Shown here: positions 44,697 to 56,591 of the stretch, in pieces
Layout: every line of letters begins with the position of its first letter
Position numbering within the stretch: the first letter of the stretch is position 1
Assembly (NCBI GenBank): GCA_026387895.1
Contig: JAPLKT010000147.1
Location: 14,625-78,624 of the forward strand
Direction: 5' to 3'
From: Gemmatimonadota bacterium
GTDB taxonomy: Bacteria > Gemmatimonadota > Gemmatimonadetes > Gemmatimonadales > Gemmatimonadaceae
DNA: 64,000 nucleotides
Made by a program: the position numbers and the translations under genes
Notes under the pieces: generated by a model
The model's input: only the letters and a program-made list of their open reading frames with translations
Told to the model about the DNA's origin: nothing
The model's database searches: none

Positions 44697-45796
44697 AGAT
44701 CACCGGCATCCGCATGTTCCAGATTGACCTCCCGCTGCACGAGGGGAGTTACAAGTGGTCGGGCGGCAACTCGGTTTCGGTGTTCGATGCGACCGTCGTC
44801 GGTGTCGACACCGACGACGGCATCACGGGGTGGGGCGAGGTGTGCCCGCTCGGGCCGGCCTATCTTCCCGCGTACGCCCGCGGCGCCCGCGCAGGCATCG
44901 CCGAGTTGGCACCGCAGTTGATCGGCGCCGATCCACTCGCGCTCGGGTTGCTCAACGAACGGATGGACAGCGCGATGCGCGGCCATCCCTACGTGAAGTC
45001 GGCCATCGACATGGCCTGCTGGGACCTGCTCGGCAAGGCGAGCGGACTGCCCGTCGCCACGCTCATGGGCGGCCACGTCGGTGATGACTTTGCGCTGTAC
45101 CGTGCCATCTCGCAGGAGTCGCCCGAAGCGATGGCCGCGCGTATCGCCCATTACCGCGGCGAGGGATATACGAAGTTCCAGCTCAAGGTCGGCGGCAATC
45201 CCGACACCGACATCCAGCGCATCCACGCCGCAGCAGAAACGCTGCAGGCCGGCGACGTGCTGATTGCCGACGCCAACACCGGGTGGACGCAGCACGCCGC
45301 CATGCGCGTGGCCGACGCCGTACGCGACGTCAATGTGTACATCGAGCAGCCCTGCATGACGTACGAGCAGTGCCTTTCCGTGCGCCGGCACACGAACCGG
45401 CCGTTCATTCTCGACGAGGTCGTGGATGGCATCGACATGCTCGTGCGTGCGGTGTCTGATCAGGCGATGGACGTCATCAACCTCAAGATTTCAAAGGTCG
45501 GCGGACTCACCAAGGCGCGGCAGATCCGCGACCTCTGCGTGTCGCTGGGCATCGCGATGACCATTGAAGACACGTGGGGCGGCGACATCATTACGGCGGC
45601 GATCGCGCATCTGGCACATAGTACGCCGGATCGGTTCCTCTTTTCGGCGACGGATTTCAACTCGTACGGGACGGTGGCATTCGCCGAGGGCGCCCCGCAG
45701 CGCAAGCACGGGCGGCTGGCGGCGTCGCGTGAGCCGGGGCTCGGCGTGCGGCCGATGATGGACGTGCTCGGCAAGCCGCTGCAGGTGTGGAGCTAA
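44693..45796 (+). CDS. Enolase-superfamily enzyme, muconate-lactonizing-enzyme subgroup (racemase/epimerase/dehydratase; specificity unknown)
   Basis: 'KFQLKVGG' (KxK), metal ligands in 'IADANTGW', 'YIEQP' and 'ILDEV', and a second base in 'NLKISKVGG'. ATG 44693-44695 overlaps TGA 44694-44696. Confidence 0.8.
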
Positions 45797-47427
45797 TGCT
45801 CGGCATTCTCAGCGCGTTCTTCCTTCTCATTGCGGCGGGCACCCCGCGTCCGGCCGACACGTATCCACGCCAGCCGGTCGACGTCGAGCACTATCGTTTC
45901 GCGCTGACTCTCTCAGACAGCACCGATCGCATCGTCGGCGAGGCCACCGTGCGCATGCGGCTGCTCGCCGCTGACATTCGGTCGGTGACGCTCGACCTTG
46001 CCGACGCGAGTGCCGCCAAGACAGGTCGAGGCATGCGGGTAAGCGCGGTAACGCGCGGCGGCGCGGCGCTCGTCTTTTCGCACAGCGCGGACCGGCTCGC
46101 CATTACGCTCGATCATCCGTCCACCGCTGGCGAGGTCATCGAACTCGTGGTGCGCTATGCAGGCATCGCCGCGGACGGGCTGCAGATCAAGCCGAACAAG
46201 TACGGCGACCGGACGTTCTACTCGGATGACTGGCCCAACAAGGCGCATCAGTGGCTACCCACCATTGACCACATTGCGGACAAGGCAACGATGGAGATGG
46301 ATGTGGTGGCGCCCGCGCACTATCAGGTGATTTCGAACGGGCGTCGTGTGGAGCAGACGGATTTGCCGGGCGGCACGCGTCGCACGGTGTGGCGTGAGTC
46401 GGTGCCCATCGCCCCGTGGCTCTACGTGTTAGGCGTCGCCCGATTCGCCGTGCAAACGGTCGGAGACTACGCGGGAGCCCCGATTGAGACGTGGGTATAC
46501 GCGCAGGATCGCGATGCCGGTTTCTTCGACTTTGCCGTGCCGTCCCGCGACGTTTTGGCGTTCTATAGTGAGCGCATTGGGCCGTTCGCATATGAGAAAC
46601 TCGCCAACGTCCAATCCAATGTTGGCGGCGGCGGTATGGAGGCAGCGTCCGCCATCATGTACGGCGCCAACAGTGTCACCGGCACGCGCACCGTGCGGTG
46701 GCGCAACGTGGTGATTCACGAGATTGCGCATCAGTGGTTTGGCAACGCGGTGACCGAGAGCGATTGGAACGACGTCTGGCTGAGCGAGGGTTTCGCGACG
46801 TACTTCACGCTGCTCTTCATTGAACACGCCTATGGCCGAGAGGAGTTTGCGTCGGGGCTCCGCGACTCGCGAAAGACGGTGCTCGATTTCTACGCCAAGA
46901 CACCGGACTACCGCGTGGTGCACGAGAACCTGGCGGATATGGCGCAGGTGAGCAACGGGATGACGTACCAGAAAGGCAGCTGGGTGCTGCACATGCTGCG
47001 TCAGCGCATGGGGGACGATCGGTTCTGGGCGGGCATTCGCGACTACTACGCACGATACCGTAACGCGAACGCCTCGACGAACGACTTCAGGCTCGCGATG
47101 GAACGCGCGTCGGGTCTGGAGCTGTCCGCGTTCTTCAAACAGTGGCTGTATCGTGGCGGCATTCCGCGCATCGAGGGCACGTGGCAGTGGGACGCGACCG
47201 CCAAGCAGGTGGTGGTGGAACTCACACAGACGCAGCCCGGCGAGCCATTCGTACTGCCGGTGGACGTTGGCATCACGCTCACCGACGGCAAGGTGCGCGT
47301 GGAGCGAGCCGACCTCGCGGGGCATGCGGCGCGGTTCAGCTTCGCGTGCGAGCAGGAGCCATCGAGCGTTGCACTCGACCCGAATGTGCGATTGCTGTTC
47401 GAAGGGCGGCTGGCGCGCCGACCGTAG
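45796..47427 (+). CDS. M1 family metallopeptidase (aminopeptidase N-like)
   Basis: 'VIHEIAHQWFGNAV' (HExxH) followed by 'WLSEGFATY'. ATG 45796 shares one nt with the upstream TAA 45794-45796. Confidence 0.85.
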   Translation: MLGILSAFFLLIAAGTPRPADTYPRQPVDVEHYRFALTLSDSTDRIVGEATVRMRLLAADIRSVTLDLADASAAKTGRGMRVSAVTRGGAALVFSHSADRLAITLDHPSTAGEVIELVVRYAGIAADGLQIKPNKYGDRTFYSDDWPNKAHQWLPTIDHIADKATMEMDVVAPAHYQVISNGRRVEQTDLPGGTRRTVWRESVPIAPWLYVLGVARFAVQTVGDYAGAPIETWVYAQDRDAGFFDFAVPSRDVLAFYSERIGPFAYEKLANVQSNVGGGGMEAASAIMYGANSVTGTRTVRWRNVVIHEIAHQWFGNAVTESDWNDVWLSEGFATYFTLLFIEHAYGREEFASGLRDSRKTVLDFYAKTPDYRVVHENLADMAQVSNGMTYQKGSWVLHMLRQRMGDDRFWAGIRDYYARYRNANASTNDFRLAMERASGLELSAFFKQWLYRGGIPRIEGTWQWDATAKQVVVELTQTQPGEPFVLPVDVGITLTDGKVRVERADLAGHAARFSFACEQEPSSVALDPNVRLLFEGRLARRP

Positions 47428-47477: not shown

Positions 47478-48110
47478 CTAGGTCGACTGGCGCGGCGTGA
47501 GGCGCTCGGCCAAATCAGGGAAGAGGATCTGCGGCAGTGACAGCCGCGACCTGGATGCGCCGGCGAAACCGGTTGCCCGCTCAAAGCGCTCAATCGTCGT
47601 CAGGGCCGTCGCCATCGACTCCTTGCGCGTCGCCTCGAACTCGACGCAGCGGACGGCACGCGACGAGGTCGAGGCCTCGTAGTACACGACTTCGCAGTCG
47701 GCAAAGTACCACACCTCTAGGTCCTTGTGCAGCGTGCCGCTCCAGAGGACACCGAGCCGATCCATGAAGGCGTCGACCTGCGCATCCTGGTTGCCCGCGT
47801 GCTGTCCGAGATCGAGGTTGACCTCGACCCGAACCTCGGTGTCGGCTTCGAGCGCCTTGATCGTCAGGTGATGGAGCTCGGCATCGTAGCGATGCCGCAT
47901 CAGGAACCGGCGGGCGCTGCCACCCTCGGTCAGGAAGTAGCGGTCGCGCACGCGAATCACGCCACTCCTGGTCGGACCCAGCGCGTTGACCAGCTGCCGA
48001 AAGCGCGGCACATCGAACTGGTCATCGACGATGTACTTGTGCTCGATCTCCTTGAATCGCAACTCGTCTGTCGACACCAGGGCTCCTTTGCCATCGGTGA
48101 GGGAACTCAC
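47478..48110 (-). CDS. CYTH (triphosphate tunnel metalloenzyme) domain protein
   Basis: N-terminal 'FKEIEHKY' (ExExK) and alternating charged beta-strand pattern ('RVRDRYF', 'LMRHRYD', 'LTIKALE', 'RVEVNLDL'). Start set to GTG 48108-48110, overlapping TGA 48107-48109. Confidence 0.7.
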   Translation of the reverse strand: MSSLTDGKGALVSTDELRFKEIEHKYIVDDQFDVPRFRQLVNALGPTRSGVIRVRDRYFLTEGGSARRFLMRHRYDAELHHLTIKALEADTEVRVEVNLDLGQHAGNQDAQVDAFMDRLGVLWSGTLHKDLEVWYFADCEVVYYEASTSSRAVRCVEFEATRKESMATALTTIERFERATGFAGASRSRLSLPQILFPDLAERLTPRQST

Positions 48111-49258
48111 ATCCACCGCTTGAACCAGCCGAGCAGCCAGCGCCTGGCCTTCAGCCGCGCGGGCAGGTCGTCGAGAGTCTGCCGAGTCACCAGCCCGTTG
48201 TCCGGATGCTGGCCGAGCTCGGCGAAGATGGCCGCTGCGGGCTGCGTCGCACGGACATCGCGGCTGACCAGCATGGCCTCGGCCAGCCGATCGTGGGCCG
48301 CGTGCTCGAAGTTGTAACTCCCGAACGCCACCCACTCGTCGTCGATCAGCACGATCTTCGAGTGCTCGCCGCGGCGGTTCTCATAGATGCGCACGCCCGC
48401 ATCCAACAGGCGATGGTAGTGCGCGGCCGCCGCGATCCAGGCCAGGTCCGTGGCCGGCAACGCGTCGCGATGCGAGTGATGCACCTCGACTCGCACTCCC
48501 CGGCGCGCGGCATCGACCAACGCCGTCAGCAGGAGCTCAACTGGCTTGAAATAGAAACTGGTGATCCGGACCGATCGCCGCGCGGCGCGAATCCGATCGG
48601 CGAGGCCGTCGGTCACCAGGTTGCGGCCGCGCCAGCCCAGGGGGCCGAACCGCCCCTGTTCGGTGTTCGGGTTGCACAGCCAGTATTCGAGCGCGAGATC
48701 CGCGACGCCGGTCGCCGCGACTTCATCCAACTGACGGAGATGTGACTCGTGCACCGAGCCGCCGATGTCGCGGTAGCTTTCGAGCAGCGTCCGCACCACC
48801 GGGCCACGCACCGCGACAGCGTACTCGTTCCAGCCATCGAACGACGACCGCGTCAGGTTGCTGCTGGCGAAGATCGCCTCACCCGTTTCCGATACCTGGA
48901 TTTTGACGTGCTGGCCGCCGCCGAGCCACCGCTGCAGCCATCGCCCAGGTTGGTAGGTCGTCACCACGCCGCCTGCGCGGCGCAGCTCATCCAGCATTGC
49001 GGCCAAGGCCGCCTTGTGCTCGCCGGACATCACCAGGCCACCCAGGCGCTGGCCGAATCCGTCGATCAGCAGATTCACCGCCACGCCGCGGCGCTGGGCC
49101 GCCACCAGTTCCGTCAGCATCCCGACGCCGTACCAGTCATGCTCGATGTAGAAGGTCGACAGATAGAGGAATGACCGTGCCTCCCTGACCATCGCGAGCC
49201 GGCGCTCCCATTCAGCGGCGCGGTTCCAGAGCGGCAAGAACGCAGAAGCGCTGGTCAT
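48107..49258 (-). CDS. Phospholipase D superfamily protein with two HKD motifs (cardiolipin/phosphatidyl-transferase-like)
   Basis: 'HVKIQVSETGEAIFASSN' and 'HSKIVLIDDEWVAFGSYN'. Confidence 0.8.
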   Translation of the reverse strand: MTSASAFLPLWNRAAEWERRLAMVREARSFLYLSTFYIEHDWYGVGMLTELVAAQRRGVAVNLLIDGFGQRLGGLVMSGEHKAALAAMLDELRRAGGVVTTYQPGRWLQRWLGGGQHVKIQVSETGEAIFASSNLTRSSFDGWNEYAVAVRGPVVRTLLESYRDIGGSVHESHLRQLDEVAATGVADLALEYWLCNPNTEQGRFGPLGWRGRNLVTDGLADRIRAARRSVRITSFYFKPVELLLTALVDAARRGVRVEVHHSHRDALPATDLAWIAAAAHYHRLLDAGVRIYENRRGEHSKIVLIDDEWVAFGSYNFEHAAHDRLAEAMLVSRDVRATQPAAAIFAELGQHPDNGLVTRQTLDDLPARLKARRWLLGWFKRWM

Positions 49259-51851: not shown

Positions 51852-52192
51852 CAAGGTTGAAGCCATCCTCGTCCCGAACTCCGCGTTCCATCAGGCGTGG
51901 GCTGTGCTGACCGGTGGGCGAACACCAATCGCTGTCCCGGACCGAGTGTCGGTATCTCTGCTTACACGGACGCAACCGTTGGCGCGCCCGCGGCATAACC
52001 AGCGCTTGCTGCCGACGAGCCTGGTCGCGGGGCGTCGGGGGGGGCCGTCCTCACGCGAAGGTCGTGGTGTCTCGCGCGGCGTGCAGCGCCTCGCCATACT
52101 TCCATAACCCCGATTGCATGTCCTATCCCGGGAGCGCATTGACGTTTAGAGGTGCGGGTGCCGCTGCGACGCCGCTGACCTAGGGAATCTCG

Positions 52193-55100
52193 ATGACCGA
52201 CGAAATTGCGTTCAAGTCTGATGCTGCTCTCCTGGATCTGACCTTTGCACGGGCAGCACTCAGTCAGCACTGGGGTATCGATGCCCAGCTCACAGTGCTG
52301 CCGGGCGAGTACGACCAGAATTTCATGGTCGCCGTAGCGGGCGTGCGCACCCATGTACTGAAGATCATGCGCCCGGATTGCACCGAGACTTTCGTCGACT
52401 TGCAGTGCCGCGTATTGCGACATGTCGCAAAAATTGATCCTGCGGTGCCAGTGCCTGGAGTGGTCGCGAGTCGAGAAGGCGCTGACTACGTGCGCCTCGT
52501 CGCCCCAGATGGGGCTGTTCGTTTGGTCTGGCTGATTACCGTATTGCCAGGGCATGTCTATGCGCGCGAGCGACCCAAGACCGTGACGCTCGCGCAAGCG
52601 GTGGGTGTGGCGCATGGTCGGTTGGGTCTGGCGTTGGCTGATTTCACGCACGTCGCCTTAGCGCGCCCGACCAAGTGGGATCTGGAAGTGGCAGACTGGA
52701 TCTGCGCACATCCCGATGCGATTCCGGAACCGTCACGGCGCCAGTTGGTGGATGCCATCGCGGCGCGCTTCGTCGATGACCTCAAGGAACGCCTGGCGGC
52801 TTTGCCGCATGCGGCAATCCACAACGATCTGAACGATCACAACTTTCTGGTCGAGGCGACTGGCGATTCGGTCCGGGTTTCCGGGCTACTCGACTTTGGT
52901 GACCTCATCTCGGGTGCGCGTGTCGCGGACTTGGCTATCGCGGCGGCGTATATCGTTTTGGATCAGCCGCGACCGCTCGAGACGCTGGAGACGCTCGAGA
53001 CGCTGGAGACGCTGGCCGCGTATGTCGCCGGAGTGCATGCAGTGGCCCCGCTCAGTGAGGAAGAACTGGCGCTACTCTGGCCACTGCTGCTCACACGGCT
53101 TGCCGTTAGCGTCACCAATAGTGGGCTGGGTAAACTGGCACGGCCGGAGGATCCGTACGTCGTCGTGTCTGAACGCAGTGCGTGGGCGTTTCTCGAGGCG
53201 ATGGGGGCTTACCCAGAGGACTACGTGCACGCGCGCCTGCGTCTCGCCTGTGGACTTGCGGCGCACCCGTCGGGGGAGGCTGTTGCTGCGCATATCGCCG
53301 CGGTACCGGCAGCGGCGGTCTTGGCGGTCCGTTTGGTGGAGGCGCCCGTACTGGACCTGTCGATTGGCGGCGCCGGTTCTCCGGATGACCCACAGCGCTT
53401 CGATATAGCGGCATTGGAGCGTCACATTGACACTGTGGCGCGCGACGGTGTCGCGCTGGGTCGCTATGCGGAACCGCGCCTGATCTATACCGCACCCGCC
53501 TTCGTCACCGAGACGTGCACCGGTCGCGAGCGGCGCACCGTGCACCTTGGGCTGGACGTGTTCGTCCCTGCGGGCAGCGTGGTCTGTGCGCCATACGACG
53601 GCACCATTTTTGATATCGCCATTCGATCGGATGATCTCGACTATGGCGGCGTGATCGTGCTTGAGCACCGGACCGCTGGTGACGTACCGTTTTACACGCT
53701 GTATGGACACCTTGCGCACACCGTAGGCTTGCATCAACAGCTCGGCAGTCGCGTGGCGGCAGGCGACCCCATCGGTAATGTCGGTGCGGCCGATGAGAAC
53801 GGTGGCTGGCCGCCCCATCTGCACCTGCAGTTGGGTTTGACGACCCTGGACCGGGGGAGTGATTGGCCGGGAGTGGCCGCGCCGGATGAGTTGGCGACTT
53901 GGCTTGCGCTGTACCCAAATCCAGCAGCGTTGCTCGGCGTTGATGCGCAGCACGTGGATGGGCGGCCTGTGGCTGAATCGGCACGGATCGATCGGCGTCG
54001 ACACCGTTTTAGCCGCAACCTCAAGACGTCCTACCAGCAACCGATCACTGCCGTGCGAGGGATTCGCCATCACTTGTACGATGTATGGGGCCGAGAGTAC
54101 ATCGATGCGTATAACAATGTCCCACAGGTCGGGCATTGTCATCCGCGTATTTTGCGCCGCATGGCCGAACAGGCGCGGCTGTTGCAGACCAACACCCGTT
54201 ACCTGCAGGACGTGCATTTAGCCTACGGCGATGCCCTTGCCGCGCATTTTCCGGCGCCATTAGAAGTGTGTTTCTTTGTCAACTCTGGCTCCGAGGCGAA
54301 TGAACTGGCGATTCGCTTGGCGCGCGCTTATACCGGCGTGCGCGATACCGTGGTGCTTGAGGAGGGGTACCACGGCAATACCAATACAGCGGTCGCATTG
54401 AGTCATTACAAATTTGCCGGACGTGGCGGCACGGGTCAGGAGTCTTGGGTCCATGTTGCGCCGCTGCCGGATCCTTATCGCGGCCGATATCGCGGGCCGA
54501 ACTCGGGTGCGGACTACGCCGCACAGGTCGGCGTCATCCTCGACCATCTTGCAGCTGCCGGGCGACGACCGGCCGCATTTATTGCAGAGACCTTGCCCTC
54601 GGTGGGTGGGCAGATCGTGCCGCCGAGTGGTTATCTGGCCGACGTCTATGCCCGTATCCGCGCGGCGGGGGGGCTGTGTATAGCCGATGAGGTGCAGACG
54701 GGCTTTGGTCGACTCGGGGACTGGTTCTTCGGCTTTGAAGGGCAGGGCGTGGTACCCGATATTGTGGTGCTGGGCAAGCCGATGGGTAATGGACATCCGA
54801 TCGGTGCGGTGGTCACCACGCGTGCGATTGCCGATGCATTTGCCAATGGGATGGAATTTTTCAGCACCTTCGGAGGCTCATCGGTCGCCTGCGCCGTGGG
54901 TAGCGAAGTGCTCTCCATCGTCGCCGACGAAGGGCTGATGGCCCATGCCAAGCGCACGGGCGACCAACTCCTGCATGGATTGCGATCGCTCGCGCAGACC
55001 TATCCGTTGATCGGGGATGTGCGCGGTCATGGGCTTTTTCTCGGCGTCGAATTCGTCAATGACCGCGACGCGCGCCATCCTGCGACCGTGCAGACGGCGT

Positions 55101-55273
55101 ATCTGGTCGAACGGCTACGCGAGCAGCGCATCCTCGTGGGGACTGAGGGTCATGACAACAACATCATCAAAGTGCGCCCGCCGCTGACTTTTGACGCTAC
55201 CGCGGTTGACCGTATTCTGGCAGCGCTGTCGACTGCACTGGCAGAGCGGCCTGCGCAACCCACAGGCATTTGA
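52193..55273 (+). CDS. Tri-domain protein: APH-type kinase + M23 peptidase-like domain + class-III aminotransferase-fold (PLP) domain
   Basis: Kinase: '[14 protein letters not shown]' and 'LLDFGDL'. M23: 'VHLGLDV', 'LYGHL', 'PPHLHLQL'. PLP domain: '[17 protein letters not shown]', '[12 protein letters not shown]', '[16 protein letters not shown]'. 1026 codons without a stop. Confidence 0.85.
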
Positions 55274-55359
55274 GCTAGACCGCCGCATGCGCCCTCGCAG
55301 CTGATACGCAGGTCGTGAGGCTTTCAGTAAAACCAAACATCAATCATTCACAGGGAACT

Positions 55360-55947
55360 ATGCATTCATCGTTACAACTCAATCACTTTTTCGTAAAAGA
55401 ACACGTCGGGCTGTTCAAAGCATCAAACAACTACGACATCTTCGATCCGACCACACAACAGAAAATACTTGAGTGCAGAGAGCCCAACCTCGGCATCTTT
55501 GCGAAGCTGTTTCGCTTCACCGATTACAAGCGCATGACGCCCTTCAACATCGAAATTCGAACCCCAGAAGGCGCAAAGGTTCTTTCCATGAAGCGGGGCA
55601 TTTCGCTCTTCGTCTCGAACGTTGACGTTCTGGACGAGAACGACAGAGTCGTCGGTCATTTCAAGCAAAAGTTTTTCTCGATTGGGGGCAAGTTTGACGT
55701 CCTCGATTCAGAAGACAACCCCGTCTGTACGCTACAGGGAAAGTGGACAAGCTGGGACTTTCGCTTTTTGCAAGACAACACTGAACTCGCCAGTGTCTCC
55801 AAAAAGTGGGCAGGCCTCGGAAAAGAGCTGTTCACCACCGCCGATAACTACATGCTGTCAATCAACAGCACCGTTGGCGCTTCAGACGGTAGTCGAATGC
55901 TCATCGTTGCCGCAGTAATGTGCATTGACATGGTGCTGAAAGAGTAA
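55360..55947 (+). CDS. Phospholipid scramblase (PLSCR) family protein
   Basis: 'VSKKWAGLGKELFTTADNYMLSI' and the C-terminal hydrophobic tail 'RMLIVAAVMCIDMVLKE' parallel the eukaryotic PLSCR 'SKxWSGxxxExFTDADNFGI ... FLIDFMFFE'. ATG at 55360. Markedly lower GC than the flanks. Confidence 0.7.
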   Translation: MHSSLQLNHFFVKEHVGLFKASNNYDIFDPTTQQKILECREPNLGIFAKLFRFTDYKRMTPFNIEIRTPEGAKVLSMKRGISLFVSNVDVLDENDRVVGHFKQKFFSIGGKFDVLDSEDNPVCTLQGKWTSWDFRFLQDNTELASVSKKWAGLGKELFTTADNYMLSINSTVGASDGSRMLIVAAVMCIDMVLKE

Positions 55948-55991
55948 CGCAGTCGCCAAACGCCTGTACACGCTGTAGGGCCAGCCGCGAC

Positions 55992-56591
55992 TCAGGACGC
56001 CAGCGCGCGCTCGATCGCCGCACGCAATGACGTGTCATTGGGCGCAATCGGTCCCGTTTTTCTCCACACCAGAATCCCCTGCTTGTCGATAAGAAAGGTG
56101 GCCGGTACGCCGAGCGTGAGGAACAACGACGAGATCCGCTCGTCGGGATCGCGCCAGATGGGGAACGTCATCTGAAATTCGCGCATGAACCCGCGAATGG
56201 CGTCGTCGGTACCGTCCGTATCGACACTCACGCCCACCAGTTCCAATCCTTTCGCACGATATCGCGCATGCAGTTGACGCAGCTCTGGGATTTCCGTGCG
56301 ACAGGGATGACACCAGGTGGCCCAGATGTTGAGCAGCACAACCTTGCCACGCTCTCCCGCCAGCGACACGGAATCACCGTCCAGCGACACCGTGGCATAC
56401 GCGGGAGCTGGTAGGCCGATTTCGACGCGACCATCATTCGCTGGAGCGCCATCGGTGCGTGTGCCGCAACTGCTCAGCGTGATGCTATTCACGAGTGCCA
56501 GCGCGAGGCCCAGCGCGTACCGCTTGGACTCTCTCCTGGTTTTCCCTGTACTTCCGACGGCCGACCCTCGACTGCCCACTGCGTGGGTCAC
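55992..56591 (-). CDS. TlpA/ResA-like thiol-disulfide oxidoreductase lipoprotein
   Basis: Lipobox 'LSSCG' and thioredoxin motif 'WATWCHPCRTEIPEL'. GTG 56589-56591 overlaps TGA 56588-56590. Confidence 0.85.
   Translation of the reverse strand: MTHAVGSRGSAVGSTGKTRRESKRYALGLALALVNSITLSSCGTRTDGAPANDGRVEIGLPAPAYATVSLDGDSVSLAGERGKVVLLNIWATWCHPCRTEIPELRQLHARYRAKGLELVGVSVDTDGTDDAIRGFMREFQMTFPIWRDPDERISSLFLTLGVPATFLIDKQGILVWRKTGPIAPNDTSLRAAIERALAS

Follow-up and report, generated by a model that had tools for sequence, protein, structure and literature searches.

The gene at 52193-55273 of the window (the whole stretch of 64,000 nucleotides of Gemmatimonadota DNA that was analysed) raises the question of what a small-molecule kinase, a zinc peptidase domain of the M23 type and a class-III-fold PLP domain do together in one polypeptide, and whether the peptidase-like module in the middle is itself an enzyme. 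The gene is a single unbroken frame of 1026 codons on the forward strand. An in-frame TAG lies four codons before the ATG at 52193 and an AGGGA sequence 6-10 nt before it, so the start codon is unambiguous. The first-pass annotation, made from the letters of the sequence, had read one frame coding for three domains (APH, M23 and class-III PLP); Pfam and the open reading frame agree with it, and all of the motifs that it quoted (HNDLNDHN, DFGD, HLGLD, HLHLQL and VLGKPMGNG) are found where it placed them. The parts of the gene are as follows.

52193..55273, + strand: the whole gene, a kinase / M23 / PLP phospho-lyase-type fusion of 1026 aa (open reading frame, translation, NF004799 match).
52193..53272, + strand: APH-fold small-molecule kinase domain, residues 1-360 (Pfam APH, conservation, model, Foldseek).
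52976..53011, + strand: in-frame tandem repeat of four LET units, residues 262-273, in a surface loop of the kinase (alignment gaps).
53273..53962, + strand: M23 module, residues 361-590, consisting of an N-terminal extension, the M23 core and short C-terminal helices (gap in two-domain relatives).
53540..53833, + strand: M23 core, which carries the zinc ligands H451, D455 and H544 together with the catalytic H506 and H542 (Pfam Peptidase_M23, alignment).
53990..55252, + strand: class-III-fold PLP domain of the ETNPPL / phospho-lyase type, residues 600-1020 (Pfam, PDB matches, tree).

The three domains follow one another in the order APH (residues 34-265, E 1.3e-20), Peptidase_M23 (residues 450-547, E 4.5e-13, 49.6 bits versus a cut-off of 28.7) and Aminotran_3 (residues 617-1016, E 1.6e-72). 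The complete protein matches NF004799 (PRK06148, "hypothetical protein", 1015 positions) with 1252.8 bits, compared to a curated cut-off of 1128, residues 14-1018 being aligned with profile positions 11-1010. Among the 120 best homologues, PF01551 and PF00202 occur in all 120 and PF01636 in 118 (994-1105 aa), the exceptions being two shorter proteins (P0018, 753 aa, and P0020, 652 aa). The three-domain relatives form two deep clades, both within NF004799, for which NF004800 (PRK06149) is the sister model. The APH, Peptidase_M23 and Aminotran_3 architecture is carried by protein clusters numbering in the thousands and by no fewer than 599 species representatives, and the best 80 loci of the family cover 10 named phyla. 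The product of 52193-55273 is thus an ordinary member of a known, catalogued and widespread bacterial family, identical to NF004799 / PRK06148 in domain content and order. The novelty that had been implied for this gene does not extend to its architecture; it survives in so far as no functional assignment or assay of any three-domain family enzyme was found in the literature searched. What distinguishes this copy is a private insertion of nine residues in the LET repeat of the kinase loop: the alignment shows gaps at positions 262-267 in 118 of 119 homologues and at 268-270 in 117 of them, and a protein 99% identical to this one (P0002) is shorter by 6 aa.

In the kinase domain, HNDLNDHN occupies residues 210-217 and DFGD residues 234-237. 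The catalytic residues, i.e., K57 (the ATP-binding beta-3 Lys), H210, D212, N217, D234 and D237, show no variation in the 119 homologues of clade A and almost none in the 115 of clade B, and the catalytic loop HxDxxxxN, the metal-binding DxGD and the ATP-binding Lys are all present. The AlphaFold model of the domain has the bilobal APH fold with a pLDDT of 91.4, which falls to 63 across residues 261-270, where the LET repeat lies. Foldseek ranks three kinases highest for this model, those acting on amicoumacin (6sui), homoserine (2ppq) and aminopropanol (6ef6), with a probability of 1.00 and TM values of 0.63-0.77; phmmer detected no similarity between the sequence of the domain and those of solved kinases. 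Of these three, 6ef6 comes from a mycobacterial microcompartment; it matches the model with 21% identity and TM 0.66-0.74, and none of the other ten top-ranked structures has a higher identity. Homology supports a kinase that is predicted to be competent on small molecules and whose fold places it with homoserine kinase II and aminopropanol kinase. Animal hydroxylysine kinase (HYKK / AGPHD1, EC 2.7.1.81), which uses GTP to phosphorylate 5-hydroxy-L-lysine, is likewise an APH-fold small-molecule kinase, acting upstream of a class-III-fold phospho-lyase. Unlike HYKK and 6ef6, the kinase described here is covalently joined to its presumed lyase by way of the M23 module. The Atlas neighbours of the kinase domain carry the automatic name hydroxylysine kinase, which we regard as a lead only.

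The PLP domain contains the Schiff-base Lys K862 (codon 54776-54778) within VLGKPMGNG (residues 859-867), and this residue, together with the PLP-binding D832 and Q835, is invariant in the alignments of both clades. Its best matches in the PDB are human ETNPPL / AGXT2L1 (6tor, 403 bits, aligned over residues 615-1017 with about 47% identity by a count of the first 100 columns) and an Arthrobacter phospholyase (5g4i, 294 bits); the next class-III match, at about 198 bits, lies some 95 bits behind the latter. With ETNPPL the domain has in common the Schiff-base Lys, DEVQxG, GSEAN and a segment of the form NNVxxVGH, which reads NNVPQVGH at residues 641-648. This segment is common to 6tor and 5g4i only, and is two residues shorter than its counterpart in ornithine aminotransferase. 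In an AGXT2-like paralogue it is replaced by GIVTxxxGH; our domain has neither this longer, transaminase-type segment nor its highest similarity to transaminases. In a tree built without animal PHYKPL and AGXT2 sequences, the NNV-type domains all fall into one clade (SH-aLRT 100), and long branches lie between them and the AGXT2-like enzymes. The phospho-lyase proposal of the first-pass annotation fits this picture, in which the domain sides with both solved phospho-lyases and not with transaminases. We consider the PLP domain to be of the phospho-lyase type, as supported by homology, and we take the NNV segment as a putative phospho-lyase marker. A match to ETNPPL is not diagnostic in its own right, because the AGXT2-like probable transaminase of the relatives also has 6tor as its best match (340 bits). 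An Atlas search with the PLP domain returned generic aminotransferase names only.

The known phospho-lyases differ from the present protein in their organization. Animal ETNPPL and its paralogue PHYKPL / AGXT2L2 are stand-alone enzymes with neither kinase nor M23 module. The bacterial class-III-fold phospho-lyase of Arthrobacter aurescens TC1 (A1RDF1, PDB 5g4i; cited in PMC6750192 as Cuetos et al. 2016) is also a stand-alone protein, of 446 aa; although it carries a segment of the same type (NNVPHVGH), it is more distant from our PLP domain than is human ETNPPL. Stand-alone homologues of 450 aa, encoded beside aldehyde dehydrogenases in relatives, were considered as support for a lyase and dehydrogenase pair and were rejected: the neighbour is a methylmalonate-semialdehyde dehydrogenase, the segment is of the GIVT type and the identity is only 41%, and these proteins are therefore assigned to the AGXT2-like transaminases.

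The M23 motifs HLGLD (residues 451-455) and HLHLQL (542-547), which had been noted as retaining the zinc ligands, indeed do so, here and throughout the family. H451, D455, H506, H542 and H544 line up with the corresponding residues of solved M23 peptidases, and are kept in all 119 homologues of clade A and in 114-115 of the 115 of clade B (233-234 of 234 in total), down to about 48% identity. The model of the core has a pLDDT of 85-94, and its M23 fold is recovered by Foldseek with a probability of 1.00 (LysTt72, EnpA, LytM, lysostaphin and others), almost all of the matches listed containing M23 / LytM domains. With LytM, lysostaphin, EnpA, ShyA and LysTt72 the module has in common the fold, the HxxxD, H and HxH residues and a lysostaphin-like HLHxQ ending. 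It is set apart from the LytM enzymes by private invariant residues (R447-R448, DYGG at 483-486 and GGW at 537-539) and by its restriction to this architecture, the subfamily being found essentially only at about residues 400-600 within proteins of about 1000 aa. M23 peptidases normally act on peptidoglycan, outside the cytoplasm, and we know of no cytoplasmic M23 substrate. In contrast to the peptidoglycan endopeptidases, the present module is embedded in a cytoplasmic enzyme: inspection of the N-terminus revealed no evident export signal, and the N-terminus leads straight into the kinase domain. Since its zinc-binding and catalytic residues are all kept, we think it most likely that the module is an active zinc hydrolase and not just a spacer.

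Some rare relatives of about 800 aa, which account for 5 of 120 hits, consist of kinase and lyase fused directly, with a gap over about residues 356-593 and with the kinase and lyase residues intact. Such direct fusion indicates that kinase and lyase are tied together independently of M23, and the persistence of these proteins implies that the M23 module is not indispensable to the pair. In the tree of PLP domains, however, separation of all three-domain from two-domain proteins is rejected (p-AU 0.0098), which argues that loss of the module is secondary and rare. The M23 module thus appears to be ancestral to the family, and the forms of about 800 aa would represent secondary losses.

Taken together, these features are best explained, in our judgement with somewhat better than even confidence, by a cytoplasmic multifunctional catabolic enzyme with a kinase, a phospho-lyase and an M23 module that is probably a working zinc hydrolase. 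From homology and from the fusion itself, we infer a two-step kinase/lyase chemistry, in which the APH-fold kinase would phosphorylate a small primary amino alcohol on its hydroxyl, the candidate substrates being ethanolamine, 5-hydroxylysine and 1-amino-2-propanol. The PLP domain, as a homologue of ETNPPL and the Arthrobacter phospholyase, would then eliminate phosphate and ammonia to leave an aldehyde, whereby the cell would gain ammonium and a carbon skeleton. This sequence of reactions had been put forward in the first-pass annotation, and it is consistent with the homology of both domains; the phospholipid link attached to it is not sustained, as described below. The vertebrate kinase/phospho-lyase pair was found by means of comparative genomics, according to PMC5714238. 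As to markers of the individual substrates, this genome, which is 96% complete, yielded no EutB match, and 1 of 41 relatives did. A model of piperideine-6-carboxylate dehydrogenase had no match in this genome, 1 of 41 genomes being positive, which tells slightly against a route from hydroxylysine to aminoadipate here.

For the M23 module, our best guess would be that it cleaves an amide or peptide conjugate and so sets the amino alcohol free to be phosphorylated. It may constitute a third catalytic site, a zinc amidase or peptidase of the cytoplasm from which the substrate would pass to the fused kinase and lyase. We hold this only tentatively, at well below an even chance, and both the substrate and any activity of the module are what we infer. 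Examples of such release would be hydroxylysine from small collagen-type or other peptides and ethanolamine from an amide conjugate. The same kinase/phospho-lyase chemistry could be retained with the module as a non-catalytic zinc-binding scaffold, which would tether a monomeric kinase to a PLP domain that forms dimers, or would serve as a binding site for the phosphorylated intermediate. That proteins without residues of about 361-590 keep intact kinase and lyase residues would agree with such a role, as would the lack of any conserved neighbour suggestive of a peptidase substrate and the lack of a visible N-terminal export signal in a relative of enzymes that act on cell walls. Non-catalytic LytM domains, e.g., that of EnvC, have lost their zinc ligands. 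Unlike these, the module described here has kept not only its ligands but also the non-ligand catalytic H506 and H542 in nearly every homologue of both clades, and its loss is rare and derived; we therefore regard the scaffold role as possible yet doubtful.

The two remaining alternatives concern the chemistry as a whole and the genes that surround the fusion, of which two are relevant here.

48107-49258, - strand: PLD-family gene, about 3 kb upstream, within a five-gene pterin-type operon.
55315-55947, + strand: scramblase-family gene, starting 42 bp downstream on the same strand.

If the C-terminal domain were a true class-III transaminase (AGXT2- or GABA-AT-like), the kinase would act on something unrelated. 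The names given to relatives by NCBI and JGI ("aminotransferase class III-fold PLP-dependent enzyme" or "4-aminobutyrate aminotransferase-like") point in this direction, and the AGXT2-like transaminase too has ETNPPL as its best solved relative. Against this stand the 154.6 bits of the domain to E. coli GABA-AT (1sf2), compared to 403 bits to ETNPPL, the NNVxxVGH segment, which both characterised phospho-lyases possess and which neither the AGXT2-like paralogue nor ornithine aminotransferase has, the separate and strongly supported clade, and the constant fusion to a kinase, all of which make a transaminase improbable. Even less credence is due to a phospholipid head-group salvage unit, to which the presence of the PLD and scramblase genes, both confirmed, had given rise, and for which it may be said that a kinase/lyase could serve ethanolamine use in a genome where EutB was not found. 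The PLD gene, however, is on the opposite strand and belongs to the separate pterin-type operon, and the scramblase gene adjoins the fusion elsewhere on a single near-identical contig of 2.3 kb, the ~90 other loci showing no such adjacency; the G+C content of the 1-kb segment that holds it (55000-55999) is 0.536, compared to 0.61-0.65 in three 1-kb segments inside the fusion gene (52000-52999 and 53000-54999). The remaining neighbours are no better conserved. Among BLAST clusters of 2823 flanking open reading frames, the most frequent reached 9 of 80 loci, all of them Rhodobacterales, and in a Pfam tally of 65 same-strand adjacent genes no family exceeded 5 (ferrochelatase and a 3-hydroxyisobutyrate-dehydrogenase-like family); neither search (80 loci, 65 neighbours) revealed a conserved transporter, aldehyde dehydrogenase or regulator that would hint at a substrate. 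In a small sample of three Bacteroidota loci, the scanned neighbours were GH18, TPR, M1 and M61 peptidase, AraC and FtsX genes, with neither beta-galactosidase nor GH63 among them; a Rhodothermota locus offered no flanking gene fit for such a scan. With the PLD gene assigned to a different operon and the scramblase adjacency limited to this genome, the phospholipid theme is unsupported, and the salvage unit is already largely refuted by its non-conserved neighbours.

For this stretch of DNA alone the significance of the gene is small, in that it adds one more member to a large catalogued family. The family itself is found in hundreds of species of ten or more phyla and is very common in soil and marine bacteria, and it poses the questions of which amino alcohol is consumed by such common enzymes and why a fully conserved zinc peptidase domain of cell-wall type resides within a cytoplasmic metabolic enzyme, possibly as a new use of the M23 fold. 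If the M23 module were indeed a third active site, a single polypeptide would carry out three successive catabolic steps, and an M23 domain would for the first time have a metabolic role unconnected with the cell wall.

The gene at window positions 52193-55273 (+) is real, and its domains were correctly read in the first-pass annotation. It comprises 1026 open codons in a single frame, and the start is not in doubt, since a TAG stop lies in frame four codons 5' of the ATG and AGGGA occurs 6-10 nt before the ATG. The ORF call, the translation and the Pfam assignments all bear out an uninterrupted three-domain frame, and the motifs quoted for the kinase (HNDLNDHN, DFGD), the M23 domain (HLGLD, HLHLQL) and the PLP domain (VLGKPMGNG) were all located in the 1026-aa protein where they had been placed. 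Its features, encoded on the + strand, are as follows:

Residues 34-265: APH, the kinase domain (Pfam, E 1.3e-20)
Residues 450-547: Peptidase_M23 (Pfam, E 4.5e-13)
Residues H451, D455 and H544: zinc ligands of the M23 module
Residues H506 and H542: catalytic histidines of the M23 module
Residues 617-1016: Aminotran_3, the PLP domain (Pfam, E 1.6e-72)

The PLP domain had been proposed to be of the phospho-lyase rather than the transaminase type. Among solved structures its best relative is 6tor, human ethanolamine-phosphate phospho-lyase, which aligns end to end at 403 bits. The second is 5g4i, a phospholyase of Arthrobacter aurescens (identity confirmed by PMC6750192), with 294 bits, and the next class-III enzyme has about 198 bits. 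The ranking of 6tor in first place is not diagnostic by itself, because a 450-aa paralogue in related genomes also has 6tor as its first match (340 bits), and this paralogue is probably an AGXT2-type transaminase, since its gene adjoins one for methylmalonate-semialdehyde dehydrogenase. The two types are separated by a short segment, which reads NNVxxVGH in the window protein, 6tor and 5g4i, whereas in the ornithine aminotransferases and the AGXT2-like paralogue it is two residues longer (GIVTxxxGH or similar). In a maximum-likelihood tree without an animal PHYKPL sequence, all domains of the NNV type group in a single clade (SH-aLRT 100), at a long distance from the AGXT2-like enzymes. Residues K862, D832 and Q835 are invariant among the homologues. 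The scores, the segment and the separate clade together argue for a phospho-lyase-type domain, as proposed.

In three relatives of the window genome (loci L096, L099 and L100 of genomes G009, G039 and G015, respectively), the AGXT2-like class-III transaminase gene directly adjoins that of a CoA-acylating methylmalonate-semialdehyde dehydrogenase, likely a catabolic pair for beta-alanine or beta-aminoisobutyrate. The pair is common in the genus, but none turned up in the genome to which the window belongs.

In the kinase domain, K57, H210, D212, N217, D234 and D237 are conserved without exception, or almost so, across 234 relatives. Sequence searches with this domain detected no solved kinase. 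Its structural model is confident (pLDDT 91.4), and by fold comparison the predicted structure is closest to amicoumacin kinase, the Agrobacterium homoserine kinase II and the mycobacterial microcompartment aminopropanol kinase. The last of these also acts ahead of a class-III-fold phospho-lyase. A surface loop of the kinase, modelled with low confidence, carries a perfect, in-frame LET x4 repeat (window 52976-53011). Nine extra residues of this loop are missing from at least 117 of 119 homologues, and a protein 99% identical to that of the window (P0002) is six residues shorter; the repeat has the look of a recent slippage event within this population.

Homology and the fusion itself thus make a kinase-then-phospho-lyase mechanism a well-supported prediction, and this part of the earlier reading stands. 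The substrate could be ethanolamine, a tentative candidate; EutB was found neither in the window genome nor in 40 of 41 relatives, a result that is compatible with ethanolamine use by way of a kinase and a lyase and proves nothing. A hydroxylysine-type compound is an equally plausible, and equally tentative, choice. "Hydroxylysine kinase" is the automatic name on Atlas neighbours of the kinase, a lead and not a test, and the route from hydroxylysine to aminoadipate is slightly disfavoured by the lack of a match to the piperideine-6-carboxylate dehydrogenase model in the window genome. At the three Bacteroidota loci with scanned neighbours, no beta-galactosidase gene, a possible sign of glycosylated hydroxylysine, turned up. 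Another amino alcohol is a somewhat less likely substrate.

The part of the earlier reading that found no support is a phospholipid head-group theme, suggested by neighbouring PLD and scramblase genes. The PLD gene (48107-49258, -) lies on the opposite strand, in a separate methyltransferase/SDR/PLD/CYTH operon. The scramblase-family gene (55315-55947, +) begins 42 bp downstream of the fusion gene, in a 1-kb stretch where G+C drops to 0.536, and is probably a recent arrival, since it adjoins the fusion gene solely in the window genome and in a near-identical 2.3-kb contig (L045). Nor is any neighbour conserved: the largest BLAST cluster of flanking ORFs covers 9 of the 80 best loci, and of the 65 adjacent genes on the same strand, at most five belong to any one Pfam family.

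Contig L045, titled "Pseudomonadota bacterium", encodes 100% identity to residues 621-1026 of the window protein, with the same scramblase, and a second contig (L007), titled "Gammaproteobacteria bacterium", encodes a 75%-identical copy of the fusion protein. In a few unrelated genomes the fusion gene has genes for cytoplasmic or exported aminopeptidases nearby (M61 glycyl aminopeptidase, L081:7878-9785; M1 aminopeptidase, L072:14562-17117), and the window has an M1 aminopeptidase gene about 5 kb upstream (45787-47427). The cases are too few for an association.

The fusion does not stand out within its family, which is known and widespread, and its architecture is already catalogued and very common. 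NF004799 (PRK06148), named only "hypothetical protein" in NCBIfam, matches residues 14-1018 with 1252.8 bits (curated cut-off, 1128). A search of 5.8 billion proteins gave at least 7935 clusters with E < 1e-10. All 120 best matches listed contain the M23 and PLP domains and are named by NCBI solely "aminotransferase class III-fold PLP-dependent enzyme"; 118 of them (994-1105 aa) also contain APH, which the other two (652 and 753 aa) lack. Scanning one genome per species yielded at least 599 confirmed relatives, and the best 80 of these loci span ten named phyla, mostly Alphaproteobacteria, followed by Acidobacteriota, Gemmatimonadota, Chloroflexota, Bacteroidota and others. The family scores above the cut-off in none of 14 model organisms, which is probably why it has gone unstudied. 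Within the window's own order its distribution is patchy: 6 of 41 genomes score above the cut-off, a count that rests partly on an unpublished genome (G006), and four of the six, including the window's own, belong to the genus.

The M23 module aligns with true M23 peptidases and is modelled with an M23 fold, the top Foldseek matches of the model being nearly all LytM-type domains or proteins containing one. Its five zinc-ligand and catalytic residues are kept in 119/119 clade-A and 114-115/115 clade-B relatives, and are under strict selection. Searched alone against 1.84 billion representatives, the module gave 215 matches below 1e-30; it represents a subfamily particular to the fusion, since these matches lie overwhelmingly at about residues 400-600 of roughly 1000-aa proteins, or in fragments thereof. 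Two-domain kinase-lyase forms seldom occur: they make up five of the 120 top database hits, the remainder being three-domain. In the PLP domain they share 72-81% identity with one clade of three-domain proteins. In a maximum-likelihood tree the two-domain forms nest among three-domain proteins, and a topology grouping all three-domain proteins was rejected (p-AU 0.0098, for a group named after the tree was seen). The module therefore appears to be ancestral to the family, and it is seldom lost. One genome of the same genus (G002) encodes an 800-aa kinase-lyase fusion without exactly residues ~361-590 (L101:6173-8575), a naturally occurring deletion of M23 that can serve for comparison. The kinase-lyase pair can survive without M23.

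What the strictly conserved M23 module does in a cytoplasmic enzyme is the one real puzzle here, a puzzle of the whole family and not of this window.
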